Shown one piece after another: positions 10,206 through 48,790 of a DNA stretch of 64,000 nucleotides. The DNA is from Candidatus Parcubacteria bacterium. Lineage in GTDB: Bacteria; Patescibacteriota; Minisyncoccia; Minisyncoccales; JAGMDC01. Position numbers and translations under genes: made by a program. The stretch is from contig JAGMAD010000006.1 of the NCBI GenBank assembly GCA_023130975.1, positions 87,187 to 151,186 of the forward strand, written 5' to 3'. Position 1 is the first letter of the stretch; each line of letters begins with the position of its first letter. The notes under the pieces were generated by a model, which was not told the DNA's origin, did no database searches, and was given only the letters and a program-made list of their open reading frames with translations.

Positions 10206-10234
10206 AGTATATTCTATTTCCTTAAAATTGTCAA
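10206..10234 (-). promoter_or_regulatory. Sigma70-type promoter upstream of rpoB
   Basis: The minus strand reads TTGACA (10234-10229), a 17-nt spacer, then TATACT (10211-10206). The start codon lies about 135 nt downstream. Confidence 0.6.
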
Positions 10235-10325
10235 CCCCGCACCTTTTCTGGATATCCAAACTTGATAAACAAGTTTGGTAATCGTCAAACTTTATGTTTG
10301 ACGGAAATCCAGAAAAGGTGCGGGG
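10235..10325 (-). terminator. Perfect three-helix palindromic element (probable terminator or insulator)
   Basis: A 19-bp outer stem (10235-10253 with 10307-10325) encloses hairpins CCAAACTTG-ataaa-CAAGTTTGG and CGTCAAAC-tttat-GTTTGACG. It starts immediately after the upstream stop codon and ends at the -35 box. Confidence 0.6.
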
Positions 10326-14500: not shown

Positions 14501-14574
14501 TGGACCCGAGGGGAGTCGAACCCCTAACCTCCTCGATGCCATCGAGGCGCGCTAACCAGTTGCGCCACGGGCCC
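14501..14574 (-). tRNA. tRNA-Ala (anticodon GGC)
   Basis: Manual cloverleaf: GGGCCCG TG GCGC AACTGGTTA GCGC G CCTCG ATGGCAT CGAGG AGGTT AGGGG TTCGACT CCCCT CGGGTCC A. The G3:U70 Ala identity pair is present and CCA is not encoded. Confidence 0.9.
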
Positions 14575-15084
14575 TTATTTAGTCCTGGTTAAAATCTTTC
14601 TGCTTTTTGTTTCAACGTCTTTGCGAAATGCTGATAAAATTTTTCTTCCCAGAATTATATGTTGTTCAATAATTTTTTTCCAGATATGATTAAGATAAAC
14701 CATATTTAAAAACAGAACAGCAATAATAATTATGGCGTCGTAGCTCTGGCGCAGCAAATAATTATTATCAAGATGAAGCCACATACCAAATTCATCAAAA
14801 GCCAAAGCCAGCCCAATACCATAGATTTTAGCTATCCTCAAATGATTTTCTTGGTTTTTATAGGTTAGTAATAGAAATCCGACAATAGCTAAAATAAAAA
14901 TGCCAAAATTAAAATGATGAATTTCTATCCCTTTTATCATCAAAGATATTTCTGGAATATATCCATAAGTCCAAGCATAAACCAAGACCCTTATTATCAC
15001 AAAAGTGGCAAAAAAATAAACCAAAATAACAAATGGGATTTTTCGGTTATGCTTTCCAAAAAGATTATAATAAAGTTTGTTCAT
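14575..15084 (-). CDS. Hypothetical polytopic membrane protein
   Basis: 169-aa ORF with about four hydrophobic helices. No family recognised. Confidence 0.5.
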   Translation of the reverse strand: MNKLYYNLFGKHNRKIPFVILVYFFATFVIIRVLVYAWTYGYIPEISLMIKGIEIHHFNFGIFILAIVGFLLLTYKNQENHLRIAKIYGIGLALAFDEFGMWLHLDNNYLLRQSYDAIIIIAVLFLNMVYLNHIWKKIIEQHIILGRKILSAFRKDVETKSRKILTRTK

Positions 15085-15092
15085 ATTTATTA

Positions 15093-15164
15093 TGCCCTTG
15101 GGAAGAGTCGAACTTCCATTTTCTCCTTAGGGGGGAGATATTCTATCCATTGAATTACAAGGGC
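15093..15164 (-). tRNA. tRNA-Arg (anticodon CCT) with C at position 33
   Basis: Manual cloverleaf: GCCCTTG TA ATTC AATGGATA GAAT A TCTCC CCCCTAA GGAGA AAAT GGAAG TTCGACT CTTCC CAAGGGC A. Confidence 0.75.
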
Positions 15165-15244
15165 AAAATAGTTGGGAACTATTCTACCTGCCCCGTTGAA
15201 ATTACGAAGTAATTTCTTTACGGGGTCCGTTGAATTACGAGGGC
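15165..15244 (-). pseudogene. tRNA-Arg 5'-half remnant interrupted by a 35-nt palindromic hairpin
   Basis: The minus strand reads GCCCTCGTAATTCAACGGA-[CCCCGTAAAGAAATTACTTCGTAATTTCAACGGGG]-CAGGTAGAATAGTTCC.. and has no T-arm or 3' acceptor. The 19-nt 5' end differs by 1 nt from the tRNA-Arg(TCT) gene at 16516-16587. Confidence 0.5.
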
Positions 15245-15252
15245 AATATTTC

Positions 15253-15287
15253 AACTTTTAACTTTTCACTTTTCACTTTTCACTTTT
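15253..15287. repeat. (AACTTTT)x2 (CACTTTT)x3 heptamer array
   Basis: Read directly from the sequence. Intergenic, upstream of the htrA-like gene. Confidence 0.85.
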
Positions 15288-15346
15288 ACGATAGCATATC
15301 TTTTTCTTGTTGACAATTATATTTTGTGCTACACTAATTATGTATT

Positions 15347-16372
15347 ATGGAAAAATCACCGATTATTGAAATCGTAAAAAGGGCCTGTCCAGCTGTTATC
15401 ACTATTGTTATTTCTAAAGACCTTCCTAAAATAGAGGGCTTTTATATGCTTCCTTTTGGCGGTCAGAGTTTTGTGGTGCCTAAAATAGAAAAAGGCAGGA
15501 AAGAAAAAACAAAAATCGGGGGCGGCTCTGGTTTTATTATTTCTTCTGACGGTTTGGTTCTTACCTCCCAGCATGTAGTCGGAGATCCCCAGGCCGACTA
15601 CACAGTTATTTTAGAACCAGAGAAAAAATATTCTGCCAAGGTGTTAGCCCGCGACCCAATCAACGATATCGCTATATTAAAAATTCAAGCTAAAAACTTG
15701 CCATTTTTAGAGTTGGGCGATTCAAACCAAATTGAACTTGGTCAAAGCGTGATTGCTATTGGCAATGCCTTGGGAGAATTCCATGATACAGTAAGCACTG
15801 GCATTGTCTCTGGACTAAGCAGAACTATTACTGCTTTTAACAGCATTGCCCAGCAAGCAGAGAATTTAAGAGGCCTGATTCAGACCGATGCCGCTATCAA
15901 CCCTGGCAATTCCGGCGGACCCTTGGTTGATATTGAGGGAAAAGTTATTGGCCTTAATACGGCTATGGTCGCTATGGCTCAAAACATTGGTTTTGCTATC
16001 CCCATAAATTATGCTAAAAAGGATTTAGCAGAAGTAGAGAAATATGGAAAAATCAGAATGCCTTTCTTGGGTCTGAGATACATTCTTCTAAATAAAGAAA
16101 TAGCGGAAAAAAATAAGCTGCCGGTTAATTACGGCGCCTTGGTTGTTAGAGAGGCCCTGGGCGAATCAGCTGTGGTTAAAGGTTCAGCAGCTGAAAAAGC
16201 TGGCTTAAAAGAATTTGATATCATTTTGGAATGCGCAGGCAAAAAAATCACTGCCGATAATCCTTTGTCATCTATTTTACAGGAACACAAAATAGGAAAG
16301 GAGATTGGATTAAAAATTTTAAGAAACAAAAAAGAAATATTAACCAAAGTGAAATTAGAAGAAAAAAAATAA
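15347..16372 (+). CDS. HtrA/DegP-family serine protease with PDZ domain
   Basis: 341-aa ORF with a trypsin-like core (..TSQHVV.., DIAILKI, GNSGGPL) and a C-terminal PDZ-like segment. Confidence 0.85.
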   Translation: MEKSPIIEIVKRACPAVITIVISKDLPKIEGFYMLPFGGQSFVVPKIEKGRKEKTKIGGGSGFIISSDGLVLTSQHVVGDPQADYTVILEPEKKYSAKVLARDPINDIAILKIQAKNLPFLELGDSNQIELGQSVIAIGNALGEFHDTVSTGIVSGLSRTITAFNSIAQQAENLRGLIQTDAAINPGNSGGPLVDIEGKVIGLNTAMVAMAQNIGFAIPINYAKKDLAEVEKYGKIRMPFLGLRYILLNKEIAEKNKLPVNYGALVVREALGESAVVKGSAAEKAGLKEFDIILECAGKKITADNPLSSILQEHKIGKEIGLKILRNKKEILTKVKLEEKK

Positions 16373-16431
16373 ATGTTTAGAGGCCGAATCCCTAAACATT
16401 GAAAATCCCGGCTGAAAATGGCTGGGATTTT
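16372..16431. terminator. Tandem hairpins between the htrA-like gene and the tRNA pair
   Basis: The first hairpin is AATGTTTAG/CTAAACATT (16372-16400), overlapping the TAA stop. The second is AAAATCCCGGC/GCTGGGATTTT (16402-16431), flanked by A and T runs, so it looks bidirectional. Confidence 0.6.
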
Positions 16432-16435
16432 TAGT

Positions 16436-16512
16436 TGGGGCGGACGAGGAGATTTGAACTCCCCCTAAAAACTCCACAGGTTTTTGTGCTAAGCCACTAC
16501 ACTACGTCCGCC
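16436..16512 (-). tRNA. tRNA-His (anticodon GTG), with G-1 and encoded CCA
   Basis: Manual cloverleaf: G GCGGACG TA GTGT AGTGGCTTA GCAC A AAAAC CTGTGGA GTTTT TAGG GGGAG TTCAAAT CTCCT CGTCCGC C CCA. Confidence 0.9.
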
Positions 16513-16515
16513 ATA

Positions 16516-16587
16516 TGCCCTCGCGAGGAATCGGACCTCGATCTAGAACTTAGAAGGTTCCTATTCTATCCGTTGAACTACGAGGGC
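16516..16587 (-). tRNA. tRNA-Arg (anticodon TCT)
   Basis: Manual cloverleaf: GCCCTCG TA GTTC AACGGATA GAAT A GGAAC CTTCTAA GTTCT AGATC GAGGT CCGATTC CTCGC GAGGGC A. Confidence 0.85.
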
Positions 16588-22404: not shown

Positions 22405-22523
22405 AAATGTCTAATATCTAATTGATCTAATGTCTAATCAATGTCTAATTCCAAAATGCCTAATGCCTAAAATTTTAATTATTTAGTCATTGGGATTTGG
22501 GATTTGATTAGAAATTAGAAATT
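22405..22523. repeat. Intergenic heptamer-word tract (TGTCTAA/TGCCTAA, TCATTGG, GATTTGG, TTAGAAA)
   Basis: The tract reads aaatgtctaatatctaattgatctaatgtctaatcaatgtctaattccaaaatgcctaatgcctaa ... tcattgggatttgggatttgattagaaattagaaatttt. Confidence 0.8.
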
Positions 22524-22528
22524 TTATT

Positions 22529-23773
22529 TTACATTGCTCCCATCATTGAATACATTGGCTGAATCATAGAAACAGCGAAAAAACCGACCGCTCCTCCAAC
22601 AATAAGCATCAAGACCGGTTCTATAATAGAAGATAGATTCTTAGTAGCATTGGAAACCTCTTCTTCGTAAAAATCAGCCATTTTTTCTAAAATCTCTGAT
22701 GTCTCACCGGTTTCTTCTCCGACTTTTATCATCTGGACAATAATCAAAGGATAAATATCCGTATAAGACATTAAAACATCAGACAGCTTTTCTCCTTTTC
22801 TTACTTTTTTCACTGCTTCCAATAATGCCTTTTTGTAATAAAAATTATTTAAAGACTGAGAAGTAATCTCCAGGCCCCGAACAAGGGGAATACCAGCAGA
22901 AATCAGGGAGCTTAAAGTTCTTGATGTAAAAGCAGTATTTGTTTTCTTTACCAAAGAGGAAATAACCGGGATTTTCAGCAAAAAAGCGTCAAGATTCTTT
23001 TTTCCTTTTTTGGTTTTTAATGCTGTCCGAAAAAGAAAACCAGAAACAAGCAAAATCAAAATAAACAGATACCATCTTTCAGTCATAAAAGTGCCGAGAA
23101 AAATCACAAATCTGGTAGTAGCCGGCAGTTCCATCTCTAAATCTGCGAAAACAGCTGCTAAACTTGGCACCACTATAACAAGCATTAAAGCCCCAATACC
23201 GAGCATGGCTACGATAATTACTGCCGGATAAATCATTGCTCCTATTATTTTTGATTTCAACTCTACTTCCCTTTCTATCTGCCGAGTCAAGGATTTTAAA
23301 ACATCCTCTAATGTCCCTGATTCTTCTCCTGCCCTGACCATATTAGAAAAAAGTTCAGGAAAGATATTGGGAAATCTTTCCAGAGATTCAGAAAAACTCT
23401 TTCCTTTTATTATCTCTGTTTTTATTTTCAACAAGGCATCTTTGAATTTTTTGTTTTCAGAAACTGAAGCTAAAGTATTCAAAGCCCCGGGAAGAGACAT
23501 ACCAGCACTAATCATAATGCGCAAATTTCTGGTAAAAAACAATTTTTCTTTTGCGCTTACCCCTAAAAAAGGAAGAGAAATCTCCATCTTTTTTTTCTTC
23601 CGCCAGCTGACGGATTTTTTTCTTGTTTCTGCTTTAATTAAAATATAACCCTGGCCGCGCAAAATCCGAGCCAATTCGTATTCATCTTTGGCTTCGCTTT
23701 TTCCGGAATGCACTTCTCCTTTTAATGATTTGGCTGTATAAAAATAATTAGGCACAATGCTTTTGCTTCGCAA
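22529..23773 (-). CDS. pilC: PilC / GspF-family pilus platform protein
   Basis: 414-aa ORF with two GspF-type repeats and three TM segments. The track start is TTG, so the exact start is uncertain. Confidence 0.85.
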   Translation of the reverse strand: MRSKSIVPNYFYTAKSLKGEVHSGKSEAKDEYELARILRGQGYILIKAETRKKSVSWRKKKKMEISLPFLGVSAKEKLFFTRNLRIMISAGMSLPGALNTLASVSENKKFKDALLKIKTEIIKGKSFSESLERFPNIFPELFSNMVRAGEESGTLEDVLKSLTRQIEREVELKSKIIGAMIYPAVIIVAMLGIGALMLVIVVPSLAAVFADLEMELPATTRFVIFLGTFMTERWYLFILILLVSGFLFRTALKTKKGKKNLDAFLLKIPVISSLVKKTNTAFTSRTLSSLISAGIPLVRGLEITSQSLNNFYYKKALLEAVKKVRKGEKLSDVLMSYTDIYPLIIVQMIKVGEETGETSEILEKMADFYEEEVSNATKNLSSIIEPVLMLIVGGAVGFFAVSMIQPMYSMMGAM

Positions 23774-29396: not shown

Positions 29397-30311
29397 TTAT
29401 GGCAGCCGCTCTGTCAAGCTGTAAAAATTATATTCTTTCAACATTTCAACAATCTTTTCTTTCCTCTTCGGCTCAAGGGAAGGCGGTTTCCATTGGCACT
29501 TTTCTAAATTAAAATCTATATCAGCGTCCATACGCGCTTTTGCCAAGTCATAAGATAAAAACACCTGGTCTTTGTAGTCCAGCAAAATCTCTTTAACCTT
29601 CGGCTTCAAATCCCAAGCCTCTCCTTTTTCTATGGCTTTATAAAGCTCGGTAATACTGCCGTATTCTTGAAGCAGTTCAGCCGCTCTCTTCTTACCAATG
29701 CCAGTGGCGCCCGGAATATTGTCAGAAGGATCGCCGGCCAAGGCCTTAAAATCAACTACCTGTTTTGGCAAAATCCCGAACCGCTCTTTTACTTTTTCCT
29801 CATCATAAATAACTGTTTCTTTTATACCCTTGCCCAAGGCATAAACCTTGACATTTTTATTCACCAGTTGGAGAGCATCTAAATCACCTGTAAGAATATA
29901 AATCTCAATCTCTGGCCCCCCACCACTTTTAGGATAAAAGTGGTGGGGGGTTTGGGCTATTTTAGCAATAGTAGCAATCAAATCATCTGCCTCAAATTCT
30001 TGTTTTTCAAAAAGGGGAATATTAAAACTTTTTAAAATTTCCTTTATTTTAGGAATTTGGGCATAAAGTTCTTCTGGCGCCTTTGGTCTCTTTGCCTTGT
30101 AGCCAGTAAACATTTTTTGCCGAAAGCTTGGTGCCGGAAAATCAAAACAGGCAGCAATATAGTTTGGTTTTAAGTCCTTTAAGGTTTTTAAAAAAACTAA
30201 TAAAAAGCCATAGACCGCATTAACCAAGACACCTTTTTTTGTTGTTAATGGAGGCAAGGCATGATAAGCCCGATGAACTAAAGCATTACTGTCAATAATT
30301 ACCAATTTCAT
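29397..30311 (-). CDS. 5'-3' exonuclease (FEN / Pol I N-terminal-domain family)
   Basis: Starts MKLVIIDSNALVHRAYHAL and contains ..EADDLIATIAK..ILTGDLDALQLV..GIGKKRAAELL. The ATG at 30311 is preferred over the TTG at 30320. Confidence 0.85.
   Translation of the reverse strand: MKLVIIDSNALVHRAYHALPPLTTKKGVLVNAVYGFLLVFLKTLKDLKPNYIAACFDFPAPSFRQKMFTGYKAKRPKAPEELYAQIPKIKEILKSFNIPLFEKQEFEADDLIATIAKIAQTPHHFYPKSGGGPEIEIYILTGDLDALQLVNKNVKVYALGKGIKETVIYDEEKVKERFGILPKQVVDFKALAGDPSDNIPGATGIGKKRAAELLQEYGSITELYKAIEKGEAWDLKPKVKEILLDYKDQVFLSYDLAKARMDADIDFNLEKCQWKPPSLEPKRKEKIVEMLKEYNFYSLTERLP
29916..29950. repeat. GC-rich palindromic element (family 2) inserted in-frame in the exonuclease gene
   Basis: Sequence is CCCCCCACCACTTTT-aggat-AAAAGTGGTGGGGGG. 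The arms are identical to those of the hairpin at 45551-45585. It encodes ..TPHHFYPKSGGGP... Confidence 0.85.
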
Positions 30312-30323
30312 AATCACCAATGA

Positions 30324-36383: not shown

Positions 36384-36460
36384 AGTTGGTTTAATTTTAA
36401 ATGATAAATTATTAAAAGTTCAAACAAAAAACAAAAAAATACAAGTTAAATATTAAATTC

Positions 36461-36509
36461 CAATGACCAAATCCCAATGCCCAACCAAATCATAAATCCT
36501 AAATCCCAA
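36461..36509. repeat. Intergenic 7-nt periodic tract (CCAATGA CCAAATC CCAATGC CCAACCA AATCATA AATCCTA AATCCCA)
   Basis: Read directly from the sequence. Confidence 0.8.
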
Positions 36510-36902
36510 TTATTTCTTTGTATTAGAATTGCGGATTATGGCAGCTAAAATCAAATTTAATTCCTGTGCTTCTTTCCATAAGATTCTTATTTCATCTCTA
36601 AATTGAGGAAAAGTGTGAGCAATTATTCGCAACCAGTATTTTGTCTCTTTTGTTTCTTTCTTAGCAATAGCAATTTTGTTCAAAAAATCCTTTTTAGAAT
36701 TGGCTTCATCTGCTTCACTATAATTTGCTCCTATGCTGGTTCCAGACCTTACCAATTGATTTATTAAAGGTTTAGTGATTGAATTCTGCGGAAGCTTTCT
36801 CAAAAAATCAACAATATCCTTACTAAACTTTATAGTTCTTTCCTCAAGGTCGTATTTTTGTTTGGGATTTATTGAATTGGGATTTGATTGGTCATTGGTC
36901 AT
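36510..36902 (-). CDS. Four-helix-bundle protein (23S rRNA IVS protein / Avd-like family)
   Basis: Contains ..LINQLVRSGTSIGANYSEADEANSKKDFLNKIAIAKKETKETKYWLRII... The probable start is the ATG at 36902 (MTNDQSNPNSINPKQKYDLEER), and the track start is 36974. Confidence 0.7.
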   Translation of the reverse strand: MTNDQSNPNSINPKQKYDLEERTIKFSKDIVDFLRKLPQNSITKPLINQLVRSGTSIGANYSEADEANSKKDFLNKIAIAKKETKETKYWLRIIAHTFPQFRDEIRILWKEAQELNLILAAIIRNSNTKK

Positions 36903-36972
36903 TGGGATTTGGGGCTTAAATAAATAAGTTTTGGCTTTTTTGTTTTGTGTTTTGGATTTGCATAGATTAGAC

Positions 36973-37014
36973 ATTGAAAATTCATTGATAATTGGTCATT
37001 GAAAATTGAAAATT
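36973..37014. repeat. Six heptamers ending in ATT (ATTGAAA ATTCATT GATAATT GGTCATT GAAAATT GAAAATT)
   Basis: Read directly from the sequence. The tract runs up to the stop codon of the 2162-aa gene. Confidence 0.8.
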
Positions 37015-40000
37015 TATTCTTCCGGGGGTGGTCCTTCAGCTGGTGGTTCTTCAGGTGGAACATAGGTTCCGAGTGCTTCTTGCTCTTCTGTTGGTTTTTC
37101 GTCGTCAATCCCGCAATCGCTCAAATCAGTGCAAGTCCGGGTTTGGGTAAAGGGCTCTTCGCTGGCAACTGTTTCTGGCAAAGGCGACCATTCGATGCAG
37201 AACCAATCAGGGATACAGACAGGCGGCTCCGGCTCAGGTTCAGGTTCCGGTTCAACACCATCTTCTGGCGACGTGGTTGTGTCAACTGGAGGAATATCTA
37301 AGATATCTGGAACATCTGGTGGGACATTTGGTTCGCTCCCTTCGGGAGCGGCTGGCTCAGGCGACTGACCATCAGTCACCAATAATTGATCATTGATCTC
37401 TGGACAAGGGCCTTGTTCCTTAACCCATTCGCCGTTTTCAATCCAGGTACACCAGATTTCGCCAGTGGTTTTATCCTGCATCTCAATTTGTTCAGCCACT
37501 ACTGTTTTTGCCTTTAATTTTTGGACTTCTAAAGTGCCGTATTCACTGACAATTAAGCCGAGAGGAAAGAGATTATTGATAATTGATAATTGGTCATCAT
37601 TGAGAATATTACCCTCCTCGTCAGTGATAACTGCCAAGTCATAACCCTGCCAGCTGACATTAACCAGGGTCATTACCTTGCCGATTTCGCTTTCCATTTC
37701 TACGCAATTTTTAACTTTTATATCGCTTCTCCCTTGTTCTTCGTTTTTAATAAAGCTGATTTCACAATTAGTTACTGTGCCGTCAAACGGCTCAAATGCC
37801 CGGCCAATAATTCTGCCAGCGCCAGTGGCTTTCATTGCCACGCCTGGCGACGAAGAAGAAGTCAGGAAATCGCCGATTTCAACAGGCCCATTTTCCAGAT
37901 TAACTTTGACCGGCACTCGACCGATTAAAGAAACCGGTCGGGTTTTAGCTATAACCTCGCCTGCATCAGTGCTAATTTCGCCATAGCCGCCGCCCAGAGT
38001 AGTGGATGGCTGGCTGGCAATCACTCCCACTAAATTAGAATCGTAAGCCGAAGCAGATTTTTCAACAAAGTATTTTGACTCATCAGTGATTTCTTCAATG
38101 GCATTGGTTTTGAGAATAGAAACAACATCGCCTGGCTCAACTGACAGGTCAAAAGTATAATAACTTTCAGCAATATCAGCGCCGCTGTCAGCATGAGTAA
38201 TTTCCAGCCAATTACTACCGTCATAAACAAGCACAGCAGTATCTTGAGTGTTATCCAAAGTAAGATGGCCGCTTAACTGAAGATTTCCAGTAGCGTCTTT
38301 CAAGACCACGCTCCGGTCAGTATGTTCTGCCCGAAGCACTAAAATATCGCCTTCGCTTCCGCCATTGATAGTATCTAAATCATCAGTAGCACCATCGCTT
38401 TCAGTGTCAATCTTATGGTAGGTCTGGGTTGCTGTAACCACCCCTGAAGCAATAGTTAATTCTGTAGCACCAGCGAAGTTTGCCATAGCAATCTCGGAGA
38501 TATCTCCGCCCGTGGCATTAGAGGAAGGCAGAGTACCATTAGTAGTATCGCTGCAGTCATCAGCATAATGGGTGGTCGGCGCAACAATGGCAATGCCGTC
38601 AGCCACGGCTGACGCGGTTTCGCCAGCTGACATAGAAGAAACTCTTCGGTAAAGTTTATAAGAAGTGGCGCCAGGAACCGCACTCCAGGTAACAGTGACT
38701 TTTTCGTCGTCACTATCGCCTGACATTGCCTGGGAGCCCTCTGCGGAAATAGTGGTCTCGCCATTGTCATTTAAAGCAGTGACCCGGTAATAATATGTGC
38801 CGCTACTGGAGCAGGAACCGCCGCTGGCAGTGATGCTGGTAGCAGGCGTGCCGGTCTGGGAAATATCCAGTTTGTTAATAGTAATATTGCCGCCAGTTAA
38901 AGTTAAATTCTGCTTAACTGTTAAGTCGCTGCCGCCGCTTCCAGTGCCGCCAACAGCCACATCGCCGTCAGGTCCGACCATAAACGCGTAGCCGCCGCCA
39001 TCCATACCCAAGACCTTAAACCCGCCGTAGACCAAATCGCTATGCTGAACATTCACCAGAACATCACCGCCTTTGGCATAAGCTAAGTGATAAATAGAGT
39101 TGGCTGCCGGGTCGCCCAAAGTAGCATCCCAGTCAGCCACAGTAATTGTATTATTTGCATTGTCAGTAATTGTTTGGGTCTGGCCCTTGCCAGTTCCGGC
39201 AATAATGGAAATACTGCCGTTAATCCATTCGTCAGCGGTCCAGGATTTATTACTGTCAGTTAAAACAGGATCAGAGAAAGAAGTACATATCCCGGAATCA
39301 CCAGTTGCTTCATTGGAACGGGTAGTCAGGGTTAAGTTTTCTGGATGATTGGGATCGCCGGCAGAAATAGTCAAATTCCCCTGGGAAGTAATATATGATG
39401 TGCCTGTACTTAAGAAAGCCAGGTCATAGTCAATGCCGACATCACCGCCGACATCAACACTCAATGGCCTGCTAAGCACAATATTCGGGTTGCCGATTTC
39501 AATCATTGTTGTCAGGGAACCGCCTGAAGCTGTTTTGAAAAGCATCTTGCCCGTGTAATTTGTATTGTCAATGTTGGTAATAGCTGATTCAATTGCGCCA
39601 ATTATTGTGGCGCCGCCAGTTGTTCTGTTGACAACCATATTTATTTTTGTTCCAGAAGCAACAGTGGCAGTGCCTAAATTTTCTATCCGCAAACCAGCTG
39701 TCACTGCGCCAGCAGAATCAGTTCGAACTGTTAACTTATCAGTCGGCGCCGTTGTACCAATCCCGACATCACCGGCAACAACAATCAAGCCGTAATTAGT
39801 AGTGGCACCGCTGGCAGAAAAGTAGCCAGCAATGTTGGTAGAAGTTGTGCCAGTGTTGGCAACTGAAGAATATAATCCATAAGTAGTATGAGAAGCATTG
39901 GTATTGGCGCCGGAGCGGGCAAGATTGAGAAGTTTTGAGGTCCCACTTGCTCCTCCGGCAGTAGAACTGGAAGTAATATCTAAACCAGTGCCTGTTGTCA

Positions 40001-43000
40001 AACCATCAACTGAAAGAGCTATTCCAGTGCCAGTGGTAATTGAATCACCAGTTAATTCAAGAAGCCCTGTAGTATCATTGGAAACAACATCAAGTTTGTA
40101 ATCTGGGCTGGTGGTGCCGATGCCCAGGTTGCCGCCAAAATAGGCGTCTCCGCTGCCGGAGATGTTGCCGGCGCTGAATAAACCCCCAGAACCGATATTA
40201 ACCCCACCGCTAATCTGGAGTTGGCCCTGAGCGATAATGTCATTTCTTACCTGCAGATTTCCTGCCTCTAAGCTGTGCACCACTCCTGATGTAGCCTCTA
40301 TTCCTGAGACATCGATTACCTTAAGGTCATCGCTGTCCACATCAACCACATAGGCATATCTACCTGAGACATAGACAGAGTAAGGGCCAGTGCCAATGGC
40401 TAAACTCCCGGCTAAGCTGGGTGAAGTCGGGTCTGAGACATCGATTACCTTAAGGTCATCGCTGCCAAGATCAACCACATAGGCATATCTGCCCGAGACA
40501 TAAACAGAGCGAGGCAGAGTGCCAATACCTAAGCTCCCGGCTAAGCTGGGTGAAGTGGGGTCTGAGACATCGATTACCTTAAGGTCATCGCTGTCAGAAT
40601 CAACCACATAGGCATATCTGCCTGAGACATAAACAGAGTAAGGGTCAGTGCCAATGGCTAAACTCCCGGCTAAGCTGGGTGAAGTCGGGTCTGAGACATC
40701 GATTACCTTAAGGTCATCGCTGATAGAATCAACCACATAAGCATATCTGCCTGAGACATAGACAGATATAGGGGCAAGGCCAATGCCCAAACTCCCGGCT
40801 AAGCTGGGTGAAGTCGGGTCTGAGACATCGATTACCTTAAGGTCATCGCTGACAGCATCAACCACATAGGCATATCTGCCCGAGACATAAACAGAGCGAG
40901 GCAGAGTGCCAATACCTAAACTCCCGGCTAAGCTGGGTGAAGTCGGGTCTGAGACATCGATTACCTTAAGGTCATAGCTGATAGAATCAACCACATAAGC
41001 ATATCTGCCTGAGACATAGACAGAGTAAGGGTAACTGCCAATGCCCAAACTCCCGGCTAAGCTGGGTGAAGTGGGGTCTGAGACATCGATTACCTTAAGA
41101 TCATTGCTGCTAATATCAACCACATAGGCATATCTGCCCGAGACATAGATAGAATAAGGGCCAGTGCCAATGCCCAAACTCCCGGCTAAAACAGGGTCTG
41201 CGGGTAATTGAAGGAAATTGCCTTTCTCAATAGTCAATTTCTCACTTGGGCTGGTGGTGCCGATGCCGACATTAGCATTAAGTATGTTAATCTCATCTGT
41301 TGCTTGATTGTCAAACTCTATTCTTCCAGCGCTTCCACCCAATCCAATCCAGGCATCATCTGGCATAACAATATTTCCGCTTGATGATATTGACAATGCT
41401 CCAGCTGTTATAGTTCCAGTTGTTGTTAAATTCTCATCGTCAAAAGATATGTCGCCGCCAGTGGCAGTAAAAGTTAAATCACCGCTGCTGTCCACTGCCA
41501 CAGAAAGATAATTAGAAGCGTCATAGGCGACAGTGAGTTGAGGAGTGCTTGTTGAAGTGATTGTTGTTTGGCCGCCATTAGCAATAACAAAGTTGTCTGT
41601 GCCATCGGTTTGGAAACGAGCAATATTGCCTGTACCTTGCTGATCTACCCGCAAGCCGTCTGATGAAGAAGTTGCTGTAAAAACAGCAGAGCCGGAATAG
41701 GTCTGGGCGCCGCTAACAGTAAGGTCGCCGCCGACAGTAACATTACCGTCTGTTTCAACTGTAAAGTTAGTGTCGCCAACAGTTAGGTCAGCACCAGTAA
41801 CATCCAAGCCAGCAGTAGCATCAACATTTCCGCCAAGTGTAATCTGGCCTGTTGATTGAGTCAAAGTATTATTGATGGTCACTGGTCCGCTAAAAGTAGA
41901 AGTGGCAGCCACGGTTAATTTATCAGAAGTTTCTCCGCCTAAGACAGTATCGTCGCCAACTCCTAAATCATGAACAGCAGCAGAACCAGAAACGCCTAAG
42001 GAAGCAAAAGTGCCATGTCCGCCAACCTGAACTCCTTGCGAACCAATATATATTGGAGCGCTGGAAACAACTGTTTGAGGAGGAGTGGCTTGAAGTTTTT
42101 TAGTAATTTTTTGGAGGGTTTCTATATCAGCTTCCCAACCAGTGATTTCAGCTAATTGGGTTTTGAATTCAGCCAATGATTCCTCGTCAAGAACTTTTAA
42201 TTCTTTAGTGATTTCTTTGATGGGTTCTATTTGGGTAATTTTTTGAATCTCTTTGATAATTTCTTTTTGAGGCAGACCTTCTCTTTCCATTTTTTCAATC
42301 CTTGCCTGAAGGATTTCTAATTCTTGTTTTAACTCCTCATCTATTTTTTCTTTTTCAGCAACGATTTTCTTTTCTGTCCTCCCCCCCCAAGGAGAAACGA
42401 GAAACTCGTATGCTTTAACAAACGGACTTTTGATTGCCTGATATGTCTGGCTTAATTTTTGTTCTATCGCATCATTGGTATTTTGATATCCTTGTTTGAA
42501 AGTAATGCCTGTCTTGACTATTTTCTGGCCAATGTTTGACGGTGCTTCTTTTATTATTTTACCTACAACAACGGCCTGTTCTCCATACCATTGGCTAAAT
42601 CTTTGAAAAACATTAATGCCGTATTTGAGGTCGTCGCCTGTCTCGCCAGTTACCTCGGCTAAAAAGGAGTAAGTACTCTTACTTGTTGACAAAATACTTG
42701 CTCCTAAATCATAAAAGTAATTTTTTGTTTCTGCCTTTAATTTGTCTGACTCTATTATTACTTTTTTCCTCCATTTATTTAATGATCTATTCATTTCTGC
42801 TAAAAATTGACTGAGAAATGTTTTTGAATTTGCTAAAGAGGTATCTATTACTGTTTTTGAGTTTATCACAGAACTGCCTATTATTGTTGTTAATTCATCC
42901 AAAACATTGTCAGCTTTTTGAGAGACAACCGATAGTCCTTTGGAGCTAATGCCGGCAACAAAACTCATTGTTTGTTTGAAATCCTGAACCGGATGCAAAT

Positions 43001-43502
43001 CAATTTCAGACAGGACTGCAGAGGTATTTTCAAAAGTTGCGGAGATACGATCTCTGCTGATTTTTACATCTTCTAAAGCACTGGAAGTAGCAGAGAACAG
43101 TTCTTTGCTGGTTTTTGTCAGAGTATCCTTGACCGACCAAATAGCATCTTTACCAATCCATTCAACAAGTTCAGGATTGTCCTGAACCTGCTGAAGGACA
43201 AAGACAATGCCAGTTGTAAGTAAAGAAAAAACCAAAACTCCAGCTATTGCGTATCGTAAAGCGTATCGGAGTTTTGGTTGCTTGAATAAGCTTGAAAACG
43301 ATATTCCTGCTTTTTTAACCTCTTTGTGTTTCTTTGAATTGCTCTTTAGGTATTCCTCCAGCCATTCTTTTTTAGTTACCCAGTTCCTGCCGAATTTAAT
43401 TGCCTTTAATTTTCCTTGTCTGGCCCTCAATGATAAATACTCCTGTGAGTAATCGCAGTATCGGGTTGCTTGTGTAAGAGAGATATAATCGTTTTCAGAC
43501 AT
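37014..43502 (-). CDS. Giant surface protein: N-terminal HTH, TM helix, coiled coil, beta-helix-like repeats, seven LVIVD repeats, FN3-like domain, Pro/Glu-rich tail
   Basis: 2162-aa ORF. Residues 5-55 (DYISLTQATRYCDYSQEYLSLRARQGKLKAIKFGRNWVTKKEWLEEYL) look like an excisionase/MerR-type HTH. The TM helix is at about aa 84-104 (43191-43253). The FN3-like segment is VTVTWSAVPGATSYKLYRR (about 38650-38700). The tail is EPEPEPEPEP. Confidence 0.6.
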   Translation of the reverse strand: MSENDYISLTQATRYCDYSQEYLSLRARQGKLKAIKFGRNWVTKKEWLEEYLKSNSKKHKEVKKAGISFSSLFKQPKLRYALRYAIAGVLVFSLLTTGIVFVLQQVQDNPELVEWIGKDAIWSVKDTLTKTSKELFSATSSALEDVKISRDRISATFENTSAVLSEIDLHPVQDFKQTMSFVAGISSKGLSVVSQKADNVLDELTTIIGSSVINSKTVIDTSLANSKTFLSQFLAEMNRSLNKWRKKVIIESDKLKAETKNYFYDLGASILSTSKSTYSFLAEVTGETGDDLKYGINVFQRFSQWYGEQAVVVGKIIKEAPSNIGQKIVKTGITFKQGYQNTNDAIEQKLSQTYQAIKSPFVKAYEFLVSPWGGRTEKKIVAEKEKIDEELKQELEILQARIEKMEREGLPQKEIIKEIQKITQIEPIKEITKELKVLDEESLAEFKTQLAEITGWEADIETLQKITKKLQATPPQTVVSSAPIYIGSQGVQVGGHGTFASLGVSGSAAVHDLGVGDDTVLGGETSDKLTVAATSTFSGPVTINNTLTQSTGQITLGGNVDATAGLDVTGADLTVGDTNFTVETDGNVTVGGDLTVSGAQTYSGSAVFTATSSSDGLRVDQQGTGNIARFQTDGTDNFVIANGGQTTITSTSTPQLTVAYDASNYLSVAVDSSGDLTFTATGGDISFDDENLTTTGTITAGALSISSSGNIVMPDDAWIGLGGSAGRIEFDNQATDEINILNANVGIGTTSPSEKLTIEKGNFLQLPADPVLAGSLGIGTGPYSIYVSGRYAYVVDISSNDLKVIDVSDPTSPSLAGSLGIGSYPYSVYVSGRYAYVVDSISYDLKVIDVSDPTSPSLAGSLGIGTLPRSVYVSGRYAYVVDAVSDDLKVIDVSDPTSPSLAGSLGIGLAPISVYVSGRYAYVVDSISDDLKVIDVSDPTSPSLAGSLAIGTDPYSVYVSGRYAYVVDSDSDDLKVIDVSDPTSPSLAGSLGIGTLPRSVYVSGRYAYVVDLGSDDLKVIDVSDPTSPSLAGSLAIGTGPYSVYVSGRYAYVVDVDSDDLKVIDVSGIEATSGVVHSLEAGNLQVRNDIIAQGQLQISGGVNIGSGGLFSAGNISGSGDAYFGGNLGIGTTSPDYKLDVVSNDTTGLLELTGDSITTGTGIALSVDGLTTGTGLDITSSSTAGGASGTSKLLNLARSGANTNASHTTYGLYSSVANTGTTSTNIAGYFSASGATTNYGLIVVAGDVGIGTTAPTDKLTVRTDSAGAVTAGLRIENLGTATVASGTKINMVVNRTTGGATIIGAIESAITNIDNTNYTGKMLFKTASGGSLTTMIEIGNPNIVLSRPLSVDVGGDVGIDYDLAFLSTGTSYITSQGNLTISAGDPNHPENLTLTTRSNEATGDSGICTSFSDPVLTDSNKSWTADEWINGSISIIAGTGKGQTQTITDNANNTITVADWDATLGDPAANSIYHLAYAKGGDVLVNVQHSDLVYGGFKVLGMDGGGYAFMVGPDGDVAVGGTGSGGSDLTVKQNLTLTGGNITINKLDISQTGTPATSITASGGSCSSSGTYYYRVTALNDNGETTISAEGSQAMSGDSDDEKVTVTWSAVPGATSYKLYRRVSSMSAGETASAVADGIAIVAPTTHYADDCSDTTNGTLPSSNATGGDISEIAMANFAGATELTIASGVVTATQTYHKIDTESDGATDDLDTINGGSEGDILVLRAEHTDRSVVLKDATGNLQLSGHLTLDNTQDTAVLVYDGSNWLEITHADSGADIAESYYTFDLSVEPGDVVSILKTNAIEEITDESKYFVEKSASAYDSNLVGVIASQPSTTLGGGYGEISTDAGEVIAKTRPVSLIGRVPVKVNLENGPVEIGDFLTSSSSPGVAMKATGAGRIIGRAFEPFDGTVTNCEISFIKNEEQGRSDIKVKNCVEMESEIGKVMTLVNVSWQGYDLAVITDEEGNILNDDQLSIINNLFPLGLIVSEYGTLEVQKLKAKTVVAEQIEMQDKTTGEIWCTWIENGEWVKEQGPCPEINDQLLVTDGQSPEPAAPEGSEPNVPPDVPDILDIPPVDTTTSPEDGVEPEPEPEPEPPVCIPDWFCIEWSPLPETVASEEPFTQTRTCTDLSDCGIDDEKPTEEQEALGTYVPPEEPPAEGPPPEE
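40304..41206 (-). repeat. Seven tandem 129-nt (43-aa) LVIVD-type repeats, probably a seven-bladed propeller
   Basis: CTGAGACATCGATTACCTTAAG recurs at 40304, 40433, 40562, 40691, 40820 and 40949, with a 2-mismatch variant (..AAGATC) at 41078. The unit is YAYVVDxxSxDLKVIDVSDPTSPSLAGSLGIGxxPxSVYVSGR. Confidence 0.9.
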
Positions 43503-44226: not shown

Positions 44227-45549
44227 ATGAATAAAAAAATAACTGGTCAAATTGTAATATTGCCGACTAAGCTTTCTAATCTTCAAAAGAAAGTAAAAAA
44301 TATTTCTGATTTCAAAAAAAACATTGAAACGGTTTTAGAAAAAAACATTACTGAAATTCTGGAAAATATTTTAGTCGGAGCAATAAATTTAGATGCTTCA
44401 GATATCCATATTGAGCCGAGAAAAAAAGAAACAAAAATCAGGATAAGGATTGACGGCATACTCCAAGAAGTTATTTCTCTCCAGAAAGATATATACCAAG
44501 CCCTGGTTTCCAGGATTAAACTCTTAAGCGGTATAAAACTAAATATTTCTGACCGTGCTCAGGACGGCAGATTTTCTATTATTTTTCAAAAAAGCCAGAA
44601 AGAAAAGGAAGACAAGGAAACCATTGAAATCAGAACCTCTTTCCTGCCTTCTGAGCACGGGGAGTCAATTGTTTTAAGAATTTTAAATCCTAAATCCCTG
44701 ATTGAGATTGAGGCCTTGGGATTAAGAAAGGACTTGCTGGCTATTGTTTTGCAAGAGATAAAAAGGCGGAATGGAATGGTTATTGTGACTGGCCCCACTG
44801 GCTCTGGAAAGACCACCACCCTTTACACTTTTCTAAAAAAAATTCAAAGACCGCAAATTAAAATCATAACCATTGAAGACCCGATTGAATATCATCTCAA
44901 AGGAACTTCCCAGACCCAAGTAAAGCCGGAAAAAGGATATGATTTTGCCAATGGTCTCCGTTCTATTATGAGACAGGACCCGGACGTCATTCTGGTGGGA
45001 GAAATCAGGGATTTGGAAACAACTAAAATTGCTATTCAGTCAGCCCTGACCGGCCATTTAGTTTTGACCACCTTACATACTAACGATGCTGCTGGAACCA
45101 TTGCCCGGTTAATTAATTTGGGCGCTAAAGCGGGCAATATTGGACCGGCTGTCAACGTGGTGATTGCCCAAAGATTGGTAAGAAAAGTTTGTCAGAAATG
45201 CGGTAAATTAGAAAAAGCCTCTAAGATAGAAATGGAAAAAATAAAAAAGGGCTTGAAGGGTATTTCCAAAGAAGTTAAAGTTCCAAAAATTGGCCAGGGG
45301 TTGAAAATTTTAAAAGCAAAAGGATGCCGGCACTGCAACTGGACTGGTTACAGAGAAAGGACAGGAATTTTTGAAGTGATTTTGATTGACGAGGAAGTGG
45401 AAAAATTTATTTTAGAAAATCTTTCTATTGCCGCTTTGAGAGAAAAGGCGCTGAAAAAAGGAATGGTAACAATAAGGCAGGACGGCTTGCTTAAGATTTT
45501 AAGCAAAGAGACCAGCATAGAAGAAGTAGAAAGGGTGACTGGAGAATAA
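44227..45549 (+). CDS. pilB: PilB/GspE-family pilus assembly ATPase
   Basis: Walker A GPTGSGKTTTLY, Asp/His boxes and a C-terminal CxxC..CxxC zinc motif. The ATG at 44227 (MNKKITGQ) is preferred over the track TTG at 44197, which lies in the repeat. Confidence 0.85.
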   Translation: MNKKITGQIVILPTKLSNLQKKVKNISDFKKNIETVLEKNITEILENILVGAINLDASDIHIEPRKKETKIRIRIDGILQEVISLQKDIYQALVSRIKLLSGIKLNISDRAQDGRFSIIFQKSQKEKEDKETIEIRTSFLPSEHGESIVLRILNPKSLIEIEALGLRKDLLAIVLQEIKRRNGMVIVTGPTGSGKTTTLYTFLKKIQRPQIKIITIEDPIEYHLKGTSQTQVKPEKGYDFANGLRSIMRQDPDVILVGEIRDLETTKIAIQSALTGHLVLTTLHTNDAAGTIARLINLGAKAGNIGPAVNVVIAQRLVRKVCQKCGKLEKASKIEMEKIKKGLKGISKEVKVPKIGQGLKILKAKGCRHCNWTGYRERTGIFEVILIDEEVEKFILENLSIAALREKALKKGMVTIRQDGLLKILSKETSIEEVERVTGE

Positions 45550-45719
45550 ACCCCCCACCACTTTTGTTCCAAAAGTGGTGGGGGGAAAAATAGCCCAAGG
45601 CTGGGGGCAAAACTTCAGTTTAAAACCATAGTTCAGAATTTCTCTGAGGAATAATCCGGCACTACCTGGGTTATCCGTTAACTAAGGGAAATTCCTACGT
45701 CCCCAGCCTTGGGCTATCT
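45543..45719 (-). ncRNA. Candidate small structured RNA (about 175 nt), identity unknown
   Basis: It has its own TTGACA-16-TATAAT promoter. A 17-bp perfect closing helix (45590-45606 with 45701-45717) encloses about 94 nt containing short hairpins. It ends with U5, a 15-bp GC hairpin and UUUAUU. Confidence 0.5.
45551..45585 (-). terminator. GC-rich hairpin (family 2 palindrome), U-tract on the minus strand only
   Basis: Sequence is CCCCCCACCACTTTT-gttcc-AAAAGTGGTGGGGGG. The minus strand continues TTTATTCTCC and the plus strand continues AAAAATAG. Confidence 0.65.
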
Positions 45720-45725
45720 ACCTTA

Positions 45726-45753
45726 ATTATAATGGATATTATGAATTTGTCAA
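45726..45753 (-). promoter_or_regulatory. Consensus sigma70-type promoter pointing at the candidate sRNA
   Basis: The minus strand reads TTGACA (45753-45748), a 16-nt spacer, then TATAAT (45731-45726). Confidence 0.6.
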
Positions 45754-45799
45754 CCCCCACACCAAACGAACATAGCTCTGTTATGGTGTGGGGGTTGAC
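45749..45799. repeat. GC-rich palindromic element (family 1): GTCAACCCCCACACCA..TGGTGTGGGGGTTGAC
   Basis: 16-bp arms with a 19-nt spacer. It shares CCCCCACACCAAACGA(A/G)CAT with the element at 48296-48363. Confidence 0.85.
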
Positions 45800-46982
45800 C
45801 CTTTTGTTTTTGTTTGTTGGTTTTTTGTTTTTTGGAGTCGGTTTTAATACCGATTTTATTTTAGCTGATGAATCGTCTAAGGTAGTAATCAACGAAATTG
45901 CATGGATGGGCACAAAAGAGTCGTATAACAATGAGTGGATTGAATTATACAATAATAGTGAGACGTCTGTAAATCTTGACGGCTGGATATTAAAAACTAA
46001 TGACGGCAGTCCGGAAATTGAATTAACAGGCAGAATCTCGGCTAAAAGTTTTTATTTATTGGAAAGAACTGACGACGAAACAGTAGCTAGTATTTTAGCT
46101 GACCAAATCTATAAAGGAGGATTGGCTAACAAAGGCGAATATTTGAAGCTTTTTGATGAACAGGGAAATTTGATTGACGAAGTGGAATGTTCTGATGGTT
46201 GGTTTGCCGGAGACAATAAGACCAAACAAACAATGGAAAGGTCTGTTGAAGTCAAACTTCAACAACCTCATTGGCAGACAAGCCAAAATCCCGGGGGCAC
46301 ACCAAAAAAACAGAATAGTCAGCTAGCTGAGGAAGCGGTTGAGGTCAAGCCTAAACATCCTCAAGGAATTATTACCTATCCTGGTGGTATAGTTGTGAAC
46401 GAAGTACTCCCCTCTCCTGAAGGCCCTGATGCAGAAAATGAATGGATAGAAATTTTCAATGAAAATATCTTTGAGGTTGACATTTCTGGTTGGAAAATTT
46501 CTGACACAGTAGGCAGTGTTAAGAGTTATACTTTTTCCAAAGGAATAAAAATTTCCGGCAAAGGGTTTTTGCTTTTCAACAGGCCAGAAACAAAAATTAC
46601 TTTGAATAATAGCGGTGAAGGAATAAAAATTTTTAACCCTAATGGAGAAATCGCTGATGAGATAAATTTTGGAAAAGCGCTTTTGGGACAGTCGTATAAT
46701 AAGTTTGAGTCTCAATGGCAGTGGTCAGAAAATTTAACACCCGGCTCTGCGAACATCGCTTCTGAAATAAAAAAAGAAATTTCAGAAGACAGTGCCCCAG
46801 AGATTATAGAGAAGAATCTGGAGGAGAACAAAAATCCTCTCTTATTATCTTCGCTGTTAGGATCTCCGTTGTCAAAGAAGAACAAGAATCCTTTATTTAA
46901 ATTGTTAATGATTGCTTTATCTATTGCTGTTTGTTTTGGTTTTTTAATTTTATTTTTAAAAAAGAAATTGAAAACTGATTAA
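45783..46982 (+). CDS. Lamin-tail-domain (LTD) protein with two LTD modules and a C-terminal TM helix
   Basis: Contains VVINEIAWMG..NEWIELYN..LDGW and IVVNEVLPSP..NEWIEIFN..ISGW. The probable start is the ATG at 45783 (MVWGLTLLFLFVGF signal anchor), and the track start is 45732. Confidence 0.6.
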   Translation: MVWGLTLLFLFVGFLFFGVGFNTDFILADESSKVVINEIAWMGTKESYNNEWIELYNNSETSVNLDGWILKTNDGSPEIELTGRISAKSFYLLERTDDETVASILADQIYKGGLANKGEYLKLFDEQGNLIDEVECSDGWFAGDNKTKQTMERSVEVKLQQPHWQTSQNPGGTPKKQNSQLAEEAVEVKPKHPQGIITYPGGIVVNEVLPSPEGPDAENEWIEIFNENIFEVDISGWKISDTVGSVKSYTFSKGIKISGKGFLLFNRPETKITLNNSGEGIKIFNPNGEIADEINFGKALLGQSYNKFESQWQWSENLTPGSANIASEIKKEISEDSAPEIIEKNLEENKNPLLLSSLLGSPLSKKNKNPLFKLLMIALSIAVCFGFLILFLKKKLKTD

Positions 46983-48283: not shown

Positions 48284-48295
48284 GAAAGGGGTTGA

Positions 48296-48363
48296 CCCCC
48301 ACACCAAACGAGCATAAATTTCATTTGTTTGCGCATAGCGCAATGCTCGTTGTGGTGTGGGGG
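48296..48363. repeat. GC-rich palindromic element (family 1), about 20-bp arms with one bulge
   Basis: CCCCCACACCAAACGAGCAT pairs with ATGCTCGTTGTGGTGTGGGGG. An inner hairpin TTGCGC-ata-GCGCAA is present. GGGGTTGAC flanks both sides. Confidence 0.85.
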
Positions 48364-48391
48364 TTGACAAGATATCTAAAAAAAATATAAT
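48364..48391 (+). promoter_or_regulatory. Consensus sigma70-type promoter for the small acidic protein gene
   Basis: TTGACA (48364-48369), a 16-nt spacer, then TATAAT (48386-48391), directly abutting the 3' arm of the palindrome. Confidence 0.6.
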
Positions 48392-48479
48392 GGTGGTATA
48401 GATAGGAAAAGGTCGATAACAATTAGAATAGAAATTAAAAATCACTCTTTTTTTATAAAGAGTGATATACTTTAAAATT

Positions 48480-48761
48480 ATGATTTACGAATTTATTGGT
48501 CAAGACACAGAAGGAGGAGGAGAAGAGGAAGAAAAAGAGAAAACTCCTGCTTCTACCGAAGAAGAAACTGGTTCTGAAGAAGTAACTAGCCAGGACACAG
48601 GAGTAGGAACTCCTGAAGAAGGTACTACTGAAGGTACTCCTGAAAGCGCTCCTGAAGGCGCTCCTGAAACTGAAGAAGGTAAGAGAGAAGAAGAGAAAGA
48701 GGGTGAAAAAGAAGGTGAAGAGGGCGAAAAAGAAGAAGAGGGAGAAACTCCGGTTGTATAA
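48480..48761 (+). CDS. Small polyacidic low-complexity protein (Glu/Gly/Thr/Pro-rich)
   Basis: Sequence is MIYEFIGQDTEGGGEEEEKEKTPASTEEETGSEEV..EGEKEEEGETPVV. It is bracketed by a consensus promoter and a strong terminator. The track start is the GTG at 48462. Coding status is not certain. Confidence 0.4.
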   Translation: MIYEFIGQDTEGGGEEEEKEKTPASTEEETGSEEVTSQDTGVGTPEEGTTEGTPESAPEGAPETEEGKREEEKEGEKEGEEGEKEEEGETPVV

Positions 48762-48765
48762 TTTT

Positions 48766-48790
48766 AAAACCCCGCTTTCGGCGGGGTTTT
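48766..48790. terminator. Bidirectional intrinsic terminator AAAACCCCGC-tttcg-GCGGGGTTTT
   Basis: GC stem flanked by A4 and T4, lying between convergent genes. Confidence 0.8.

Follow-up and report, generated by a model that had tools for sequence, protein, structure and literature searches.

Does the spacer between a pilB gene and its downstream neighbour in a member of the Candidatus Parcubacteria hold an RNA gene of its own and, if so, what kind of RNA does it encode? The question arises from a stretch of 64,000 nucleotides (nt) of Candidatus Parcubacteria bacterium (GenBank assembly GCA_023130975.1, contig JAGMAD010000006.1, positions 87,187 to 151,186 of the forward strand), which was analysed over its full length and is called the window here. 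An initial annotation, made by reading the letters alone, had proposed an independent small RNA (sRNA) of about 175 nt on the minus strand, of no recognized class and with its own promoter and terminator, between pilB and a gene for a protein with an LTD domain. Everything listed in its support, i.e. the promoter, a long helix, a run of five U residues, a GC-rich hairpin followed by UUUAUU and the two flanking genes on the plus strand, was present where it had been placed. Our comparative analysis indicates that positions 45719-45586 of the minus strand are very probably a real gene for a structured non-coding RNA (ncRNA) with a predicted length of ~134 nt. The proposal of an independent minus-strand gene was borne out by a conserved promoter, by covarying helices and by strand-specific G.U counts and model scores.

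We found the same element at about 50 loci, and 29 core-type sequences were aligned or scored. The window PilB is 90% identical to the PilB of a Candidatus Nealsonbacteria metagenome-assembled genome (MAG). Among species-representative genomes, three syntenic loci (PilB 90, 75 and 66% identical) all carried the element directly after pilB. Metagenome contigs were scanned with a 23-nt degenerate core pattern that ignores gene context, and all 37 loci obtained in this synteny-blind way contained the element. A protein look-up gave six more PilB homologues, and the element was again found in 6/6, one of them in the closed 661-kb Nealsonbacteria genome CP061210.1. The family ranges over Patescibacteria, comprising Nealsonbacteria/Minisyncoccales and relatives in the class Paceibacteria. 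Its conserved gene measures ~113-135 nt, and a small open reading frame (ORF) is not conserved within it: the sole AUG of the RNA yields MVLN*, which is not kept in the family.

The structure was derived from a MAFFT alignment of 23 distinct sequences in combination with RNAalifold, and a second, model-based alignment of 26 sequences gave a concordant picture. The predicted fold is a three-way junction of a long closing helix (P1), a rod (P2, P2b, a 5' bulge and P3) and a 3' hairpin (P5). In the MAFFT alignment, 93.2% of 1098 paired cells held standard pairs, versus 35.6-59.0% when the partners were slid by 1-3 columns. Both sides had changed in 26 pairs, including 17/18 modelled P1 pairs, and none of 500 shuffles reached the observed values. 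The compensatory changes that would be expected of a structured RNA were thus present in the homologous spacers.

P1 is long and GC-rich, with 18-24 bp over the family, and joins the 5' and 3' ends. Its arm sequences vary among genomes by compensatory changes. The window contains the 17-nt arm ATAGCCCAAGGCTGGGG exactly twice, in inverted orientation, at 45590-45606 and 45701-45717 (0.08 matches expected). The 17-bp helix described initially is indeed perfect and encloses 94 nt, but pairing extends to 19 bp with one G.U (45719-45701 with 45588-45606). The 5' arm AGAUAGCCCAAGGCUGGGG (45701-45719, minus strand) and the 3' arm CCCCAGCCUUGGGCUAUUU (45588-45606, minus strand) are modelled as 45718-45701 with 45606-45589 plus the pair A45719-U45588, and the 3' arm leads into a U5 tract (45590-45586).

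The rod (45635-45695, minus strand) consists of P2 (45695-45685 with 45645-45635) and P2b (45683-45682 with 45648-45647), followed by the 5' bulge (45681-45677), P3 (45676-45664 with 45660-45649) and the apical loop (45663-45661). Across the family P2 has 11 bp, P2b 2 bp, the bulge 2-5 nt and P3 ~10 bp. Pairing reaches 98.7% in P2 and 96.5% in P3, with 3-4 covarying pairs each, and two rod pairs, 45695/45635 and 45675/45650, are invariant G.U. The rod sequence is nearly invariant at PilB identities of 50-100%, also in the members that were found through PilB (L006, L044 and L048; L numbers designate loci). Between P1 and P2, the 5' strand of the junction measures only 0-6 nt in all 26 aligned members. 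P5 (45612-45632, minus strand; 45632-45626 with 45618-45612) was found in all members, with variable sequence and loop and a weaker alignment (74% paired). The apical loops vary as well (GUUU, CGAGAGCG, UAGUG, UUUGCA), and four loci (L010, L027, L030, L043) carry an insertion of ~95 nt in this loop, as expected of a peripheral loop in a functional RNA.

This rod with P5 replaces the three short hairpins initially drawn inside the long helix (AGGAAU..AUUCCU, UCAGA..UCUGA and AAAC..GUUU). These can be drawn, but they show zero covariation and shuffled sequences do equally well or better. An alternative GGAAU/AUUCC pairing is possible, but it is incompatible with the covarying P3. By eye, the aligned sequences showed no consistent complementarity between the P5 loop and the 5' bulge that would form a pseudoknot.

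The fold is far stabler than those of shuffled sequences, with z = -7.45 for 180 nt of the minus strand and z = -5.75 for the 134-nt core. The plus strand, however, folds better in the window sequence alone (-92.3 versus -87.0 kcal/mol, plus-strand z -10.1). A strand call is therefore impossible from this single sequence, and we dropped that approach. The family provides the distinction: in the minus-strand sense, its paired cells contain 148 G.U/U.G versus 21 A.C/C.A, and for P1 pairs, G.U occurs in 25/26 sequences while A.C occurs in 4/26. A covariance model of the family (R1) scored 97-131 bits in sense versus 16-47 bits in antisense. In the window, R1 matched 45585-45725 of the minus strand over its full length with 114.5 bits (E 8e-26; R1 E-values are approximate, as the calibration of the model was shortened), versus 27.4 bits on the plus strand. 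The excess of G.U over A.C and the gap between sense and antisense scores thus place the RNA on the minus strand. One R1-type copy exists in the window and one at each locus, including the closed 661-kb genome.

The promoter consists of a -35 box TTGACA (45748-45753, minus strand), whose bases also belong to codons 3-5 of LTD on the plus strand, and, after a 16-nt spacer, a -10 box TATAAT (45726-45731, minus strand) within the palindrome ATTATAAT. It matches the sigma-70 consensus at 12/12 positions and is one of two sites in the 64 kb that fit TTGACA-N15-19-TAWAAT (0.29 expected). TTGACA is preserved letter for letter in 24/24 members whose upstream sequence is available. The -10 box follows at a spacing of 16-17 nt in forms such as TATAAT, TAAAAT and TACAAT, and agrees with TATAAT at 5-6 of 6 positions in 23/24 members (4/6 in L006). 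P1 begins 3-19 nt past the -10 box across members. In the window the transcript would start at ~45719, 7 nt past the -10 box, so that the first transcribed bases already lie within P1.

At the other end, the conserved RNA of the window stops with P1 and the U5 run at 45590-45586, which makes it shorter than the ~175 nt of the initial proposal. At least five U residues within 8 nt past the modelled P1 end were present in 17/26 members (U inside P1 not counted). In L006, which has no extra hairpin, P1 is followed by U7 and then by the pilB stop codon. The divergent members L011 and L039 possess a separate canonical terminator on the same strand, a hairpin plus U6. The 7 nt that precede P1 are A-rich, with 3-6 A residues.

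What, then, is the GC-rich hairpin (45551-45585) that the initial annotation took for an orientation-specific terminator and for the end of the RNA? Its sequence is CCCCCCACCACTTTTG-TTC-CAAAAGTGGTGGGGGG, and its stem, described as 15 bp, measures 16 bp (10 GC pairs) with a 3-nt loop. On the minus strand (45585-45551) the tail TTTATTCTCC, UUUAUU, follows, and on the plus strand AAAAATAG. In our scan the hairpin qualified as an intrinsic terminator on the minus strand, with only three consecutive U in the tail because the pilB stop codon comes next. The terminator-like character therefore stands, but the hairpin belongs to a dispersed palindromic repeat, of which it is one copy. The site lacks it in L017/L040, the closest relative with differing sequence, in L006 and in most members; L004 and L005 have unrelated palindromes with 27-53-nt loops there. 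L017 (PilB 82% identical) has a near-identical RNA with neither of the two palindromes that flank the RNA in the window, and thus represents an empty site. Since the hairpin is missing from the nearest relative and from most members, it is not part of the family; the comparison identifies it as a recent repeat insertion. In the window it may serve as a back-up or secondary terminator at most.

Does the RNA belong to a known class? At gathering score, a search of the whole window with 4227 Rfam families returned only four tRNA genes (14501-16587, minus strand). At permissive thresholds, the spacer 45450-45850 (E<=10) and eight diverse members (E<=1) gave only noise, namely microRNA models and RsaJ/PK-repZ models that matched GC hairpins alone; no cis-regulatory leader was found on the plus strand either. 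A literature search on ncRNA in the candidate phyla radiation (CPR), Patescibacteria and Parcubacteria, on 6S and signal recognition particle (SRP) RNA and on Nealsonbacteria brought up no description of this RNA. The initial view that it fits no known class therefore holds: the family is new, without a match in Rfam 15 or in the literature searched. Its nearest counterparts in kind are orphan ncRNA classes such as raiA, OLE, HEARO and the lineage-named Rfam motifs, which were likewise defined by covariation and context, are lineage-restricted and had no known function at discovery. It differs from them in matching none in sequence or structure, in its clear promoter and in its constant convergent GspE/PilB partner.

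The RNA gene is convergent with the gene for this GspE/PilB-type ATPase (pilB, 44227-45549, plus strand; Pfam T2SSE, E 1e-112) and divergent from the gene for the LTD-domain membrane protein (45741-46982, plus strand). The convergent arrangement with a PilB-type gene was found at 41/41 loci with enough flanking sequence and at three later loci. Between the end of the RNA and the pilB stop codon lie 36 nt in the window. Most homologues have a gap of -7 to +3 nt there, which leaves no room for a terminator of pilB's own. Given this spacing, the RNA and pilB transcripts very likely overlap at most loci. On the promoter side the neighbour varies: LTD at most loci, a ~335-aa protein at L005, L035, L011 and L019 (RuvB in L005), and others elsewhere.

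How might such an RNA work? We propose that it would be abundant and stable, with the rod as a platform for a conserved partner in trans, most likely a protein. A freely varying P1, a near-invariant rod with two invariant G.U pairs and a dispensable apical loop form a pattern which suggests that the rod is what a trans partner would recognize. P1 would shield the ends and terminate transcription. Since an A-rich tract flanks it 5' and a U-run 3', P1 might act as a bidirectional terminator that ends the RNA as well as the mRNA of the convergent pilB; in that case, the 3' untranslated region (UTR) of the pilB mRNA would run antisense to the RNA. We offer the mechanism, a stable RNA with a partner in trans and a protective and terminating P1, tentatively, as plausible but somewhat short of probable. 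For the broader account, in which an RNA gene yields a stable protein-bound RNA and P1 is a bidirectional terminator, our assessment is cautiously favourable.

Several points weigh against this account. Where the RNA starts and where it ends was deduced from consensus elements. L017/L040, L024 and L005 have no U-run after P1; P1 plus U-run is therefore not a universal 3'-end signal. The idea of a bound protein is drawn from the pattern of conservation, and the search pattern with which most sequences were found fixed 17 core positions, which inflated the apparent conservation. All sequences stem from one clade (PilB at least 50% identical), so that the cell counts do not represent independent events. 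A perfect helix of 19-24 bp is normally a substrate for RNase III, and the primary transcript may therefore be processed into a different mature RNA. Finally, the invariable linkage to pilB suits a function purely in cis at least as well.

Such a cis role would make the RNA an antisense transcript and its gene a bidirectional terminator or insulator for the convergent pilB. The pilB mRNA would enter the RNA gene, where duplex formation, RNase III cleavage or polymerase collision would set the pilB mRNA level, and read-through into the next gene would be blocked. Much of the context fits: the tail-to-tail position to pilB at every scorable locus while the gene on the opposite side changes, the gap that leaves pilB without its own terminator, the A-rich and U-rich flanks of P1, and a perfect consensus promoter aimed at pilB. 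Cis-antisense RNAs and bidirectional terminators share the convergent, nearly abutting arrangement and the sequence of A-tract, helix and U-tract, and the pilB 3' UTR would be fully complementary to the RNA. Unlike these, the element encloses a conserved structured domain of ~95 nt, whose internal conservation goes beyond the needs of antisense pairing or termination. Antisense complementarity is automatic, and requires neither a near-invariant rod over PilB identities of 50-100% nor invariant G.U pairs; selection clearly acts on the minus-strand fold. Moreover, these genomes keep their gene order for unrelated genes too (tsaE-pilB-LTD-yebC-ruvC), so that the linkage may be inertia. A cis role accounts for the strict linkage yet leaves the conserved sequence unexplained, and roles in cis and in trans are compatible. 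As the sole explanation we consider it a serious contender, yet unlikely.

Considerably less credit is due to a diverged form of a known housekeeping RNA, with a miniature 6S-like RNA that binds RNA polymerase as the lead candidate and SRP, Y or 5S-like RNAs less likely still. The 6S RNA binds the sigma-70 RNA polymerase holoenzyme and serves as the template of a product RNA. Like 6S RNA (ssrS, RF00013 and variants), the RNA described here has its own transcription, is probably abundant, has its ends paired in a long closing helix and is rod-like, with an asymmetric interruption halfway along, from whose 3' strand a small hairpin projects. A strong, constitutive-looking promoter and one copy per locus, also in the closed 661-kb genome, fit as well. 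In contrast to the 6S RNAs, which are ~150-200 nt long, it measures 113-135 nt; P2 covaries right beside the junction; and a junction 5' strand of 0-6 nt leaves no large central bubble that could resemble an open promoter or serve as a template. With bacterial small SRP (4.5S) RNA it shares a length of ~110-135 nt, paired termini, a conserved single copy and a housekeeping-style promoter. SRP RNA is a single hairpin with an invariant apical tetraloop and symmetric and asymmetric internal loops (helix 8), whereas we found a three-way junction and a variable apical loop that takes insertions of ~95 nt, with neither an SRP-type tetraloop nor a symmetric loop. For 5S rRNA, P1 with 18-24 bp contrasts with the short helix I of about 10 bp that this RNA has beside its conserved loops A-E. 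None of the 6S, SRP, 5S and Y models matched in the spacer at E<=10 or in the eight members at E<=1. We therefore rejected 6S, SRP and 5S RNA as such, and regard a diverged relative of these classes as quite improbable.

A functional plus-strand transcript, be it a structure in the pilB 3' UTR or a leader or riboswitch 5' of LTD, is very improbable. The slightly better plus-strand fold in the window and the plus-strand orientation of both flanking genes speak for it, but one-sided helix changes favour the minus strand (148 G.U versus 21 A.C), antisense scores are 60-100 bits lower, the conserved promoter points in the minus direction, the downstream gene is inconstant (LTD, RuvB, others) and Rfam gave no cis-regulatory match on either strand. 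Least credible of all is a feature of the DNA without a role as RNA, such as a miniature mobile element with the long inverted repeat as its ends, or a site of recombination: a perfect inverted repeat of 17-19 bp and mobile-looking palindromes in the window, two of them directly flanking the element, would suit it, but the element is single-copy in the window and at each locus, always at the same genomic site, its arms differ among genomes by compensatory changes, it has a conserved promoter and the RNA-level signature of G.U asymmetry, and its core pattern had no match in 2.9 million viral contigs. Single copy, fixed locus and compensatory changes also led us to discard the reading of the long inverted repeat as a miniature inverted-repeat transposable element (MITE).

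The preferred reading, a stable RNA with a partner in trans, can be taken one speculative step further. The RNA might form, with a conserved partner, a housekeeping-type ribonucleoprotein (RNP) specific to Patescibacteria, whose invariable coupling to pilB would reflect a link to the type IV pilus and DNA uptake, with the RNA as a regulator or cofactor of the expression or assembly of the PilB ATPase. We rate this as improbable. If true, the RNA would found a class of its own and fill a novel biological role, beyond that of another regulatory sRNA, tied to the type IV pilus/DNA-uptake machinery on which these episymbionts depend.

Patescibacteria, also known as the CPR, are tiny in genome size and account for a large part of bacterial diversity. 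To our knowledge, almost nothing is known about their ncRNAs besides rRNA, tRNA, tmRNA, RNase P and SRP RNA. The RNA described here is predicted to be driven by its own promoter, is retained in genomes of ~0.6-0.7 Mb and has a core that is invariant across many lineages, which makes an important role likely. Its covariance model, its predicted ends and its fixed address beside pilB provide a handle for metatranscriptomes and for the few existing co-cultures.

The -10 box also concerns the divergent gene. Through its palindromic form it provides a TATAAT on the plus strand (45728-45733), and 7 nt separate the end of this box from the LTD start codon (45741). At every related locus, the divergent gene has its start codon in the spacer between the -35 and -10 boxes of the RNA. 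The palindromic -10 box and the position of the start codon suggest a bidirectional promoter that might be shared by RNA and LTD gene, with a leaderless LTD mRNA. As a consequence of this invariable position of the start codon, unrelated proteins have a common N-terminus: LTD in the window and RuvB in L005 both begin with MNLSTP.

A spacer between pilB and ruvB in a Moranbacteria MAG (JAQUQQ010000096.1; L047 2240-2490, minus strand) has a similar layout. It contains a TTGACA-17-TAAACT promoter, a terminal helix of ~21 bp around several hairpins and, at the stop codon of pilB, a U-run. Its match to the family is local (15 bits) and limited to the core of P2 top, bulge and P3. The element may be a distant homologue and was not counted as a member.

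The palindromic repeats proved to be widespread. The stem of the hairpin beside the RNA recurs as an identical 15-16-nt stem (CCCCCCACCACTTTT/AAAAGTGGTGGGGGG) at 29916-29950, and related GC-rich palindromes lie at 10234-10326, 45754-45798 and 48291-48369 of the window. Further copies were detected at other loci (L004 4324-4390, L005 4299-4383, L016 5639-5705, L027 797-896, L030 6832-6931, L043 625-724). Their stems, e.g. CCCCCCACCACTTTT, CCCCCACACCAAA and ACCCCGCACCTTTT, enclose loops of 3 to ~70 nt, and the copies sit between genes, within genes and within the apical loop of the RNA. The second copy at the RNA gene, GTCAACCCCCACACCA...TGGTGTGGGGGTTGAC (45754-45798), abuts the -35 box and forms a 45-nt in-frame insertion in the LTD gene compared to L017. 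This insertion in the first codons reads ATGAATTTGTCAACCCTTTTG and is decaying already in L004.

Another copy (29916-29950) lies in frame within a gene for a 5'-3' exonuclease of the FEN type (ORF 29397-30320, minus strand), where it encodes TPHHFYPKSGGGP. In this variable region, the homologue of the closed Nealsonbacteria genome has 7 residues fewer; as the alignment with this one homologue gives only the 7-residue difference, we do not count the copy as a clean in-frame insertion. The window contains just one further perfect promoter, TTGACA-16-TATAAT (48364-48391, plus strand), and its -35 box is supplied by the right end of the palindrome at 48291-48369. Downstream of it we observed a very acidic low-complexity ORF of ~93-99 aa (48462-48790; the likelier start is the ATG at 48480) and after it a clean terminator, CCCCGCTTTCGGCGGGGTTTT (~48770-48790).

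These palindromes look like mobile elements of the repetitive extragenic palindromic (REP) or MITE type. They appear to resemble REP sequences and bacterial interspersed mosaic elements (BIMEs), which are associated with REP-associated tyrosine transposases (RAYTs), the Correia elements of Neisseria and the palindromic elements of Rickettsia in being GC-rich and multicopy with identical stems and differing loops, and in having copies that are intergenic, lie in frame within genes or supply a -35 box or a terminator-like hairpin. They differ in having no linked transposase in the window and in inconsistent target-site duplications: TCAA/TTGA repeats flank two palindrome copies and none of the others. 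A gene for a Y1 transposase (IS200/IS605 or RAYT-type) was found in L052 (1228-1950, minus strand), between the exonuclease gene and tsaE, and a 48% identical Y1_Tnp copy in L042 (2768-3520); the window has no copy. This transposase is a candidate for the mobilizer of the repeats. Palindromes that enter genes in frame, the loop of an RNA and promoter-adjacent sites bear on the evolution of streamlined genomes. They also call for caution in annotation, as GC hairpins in these genomes are not always native terminators.

Repeats of a different kind occur at several intergenic sites of the window, where runs of 7-nt units, (AAAAGTT/AACTTTT)n, (GGTCATT)n and (GGGATTT)n, were noted (398-583, 3541-3625, 6162-6232, 15245-15301, 22473-22533, 36448-36509, 36861-37017). 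Some of the runs pair up as long, imperfect inverted repeats, and a small gene on the minus strand (~36510-36860) has one set on either side. Finally, the minus strand contains an ORF of 2162 aa (37014-43502) with an LVIVD repeat match on record. It includes seven tandem repeats of 129 nt (43 aa) at 40175-41248, the central ones of which are 88-92% identical to the reference copy.

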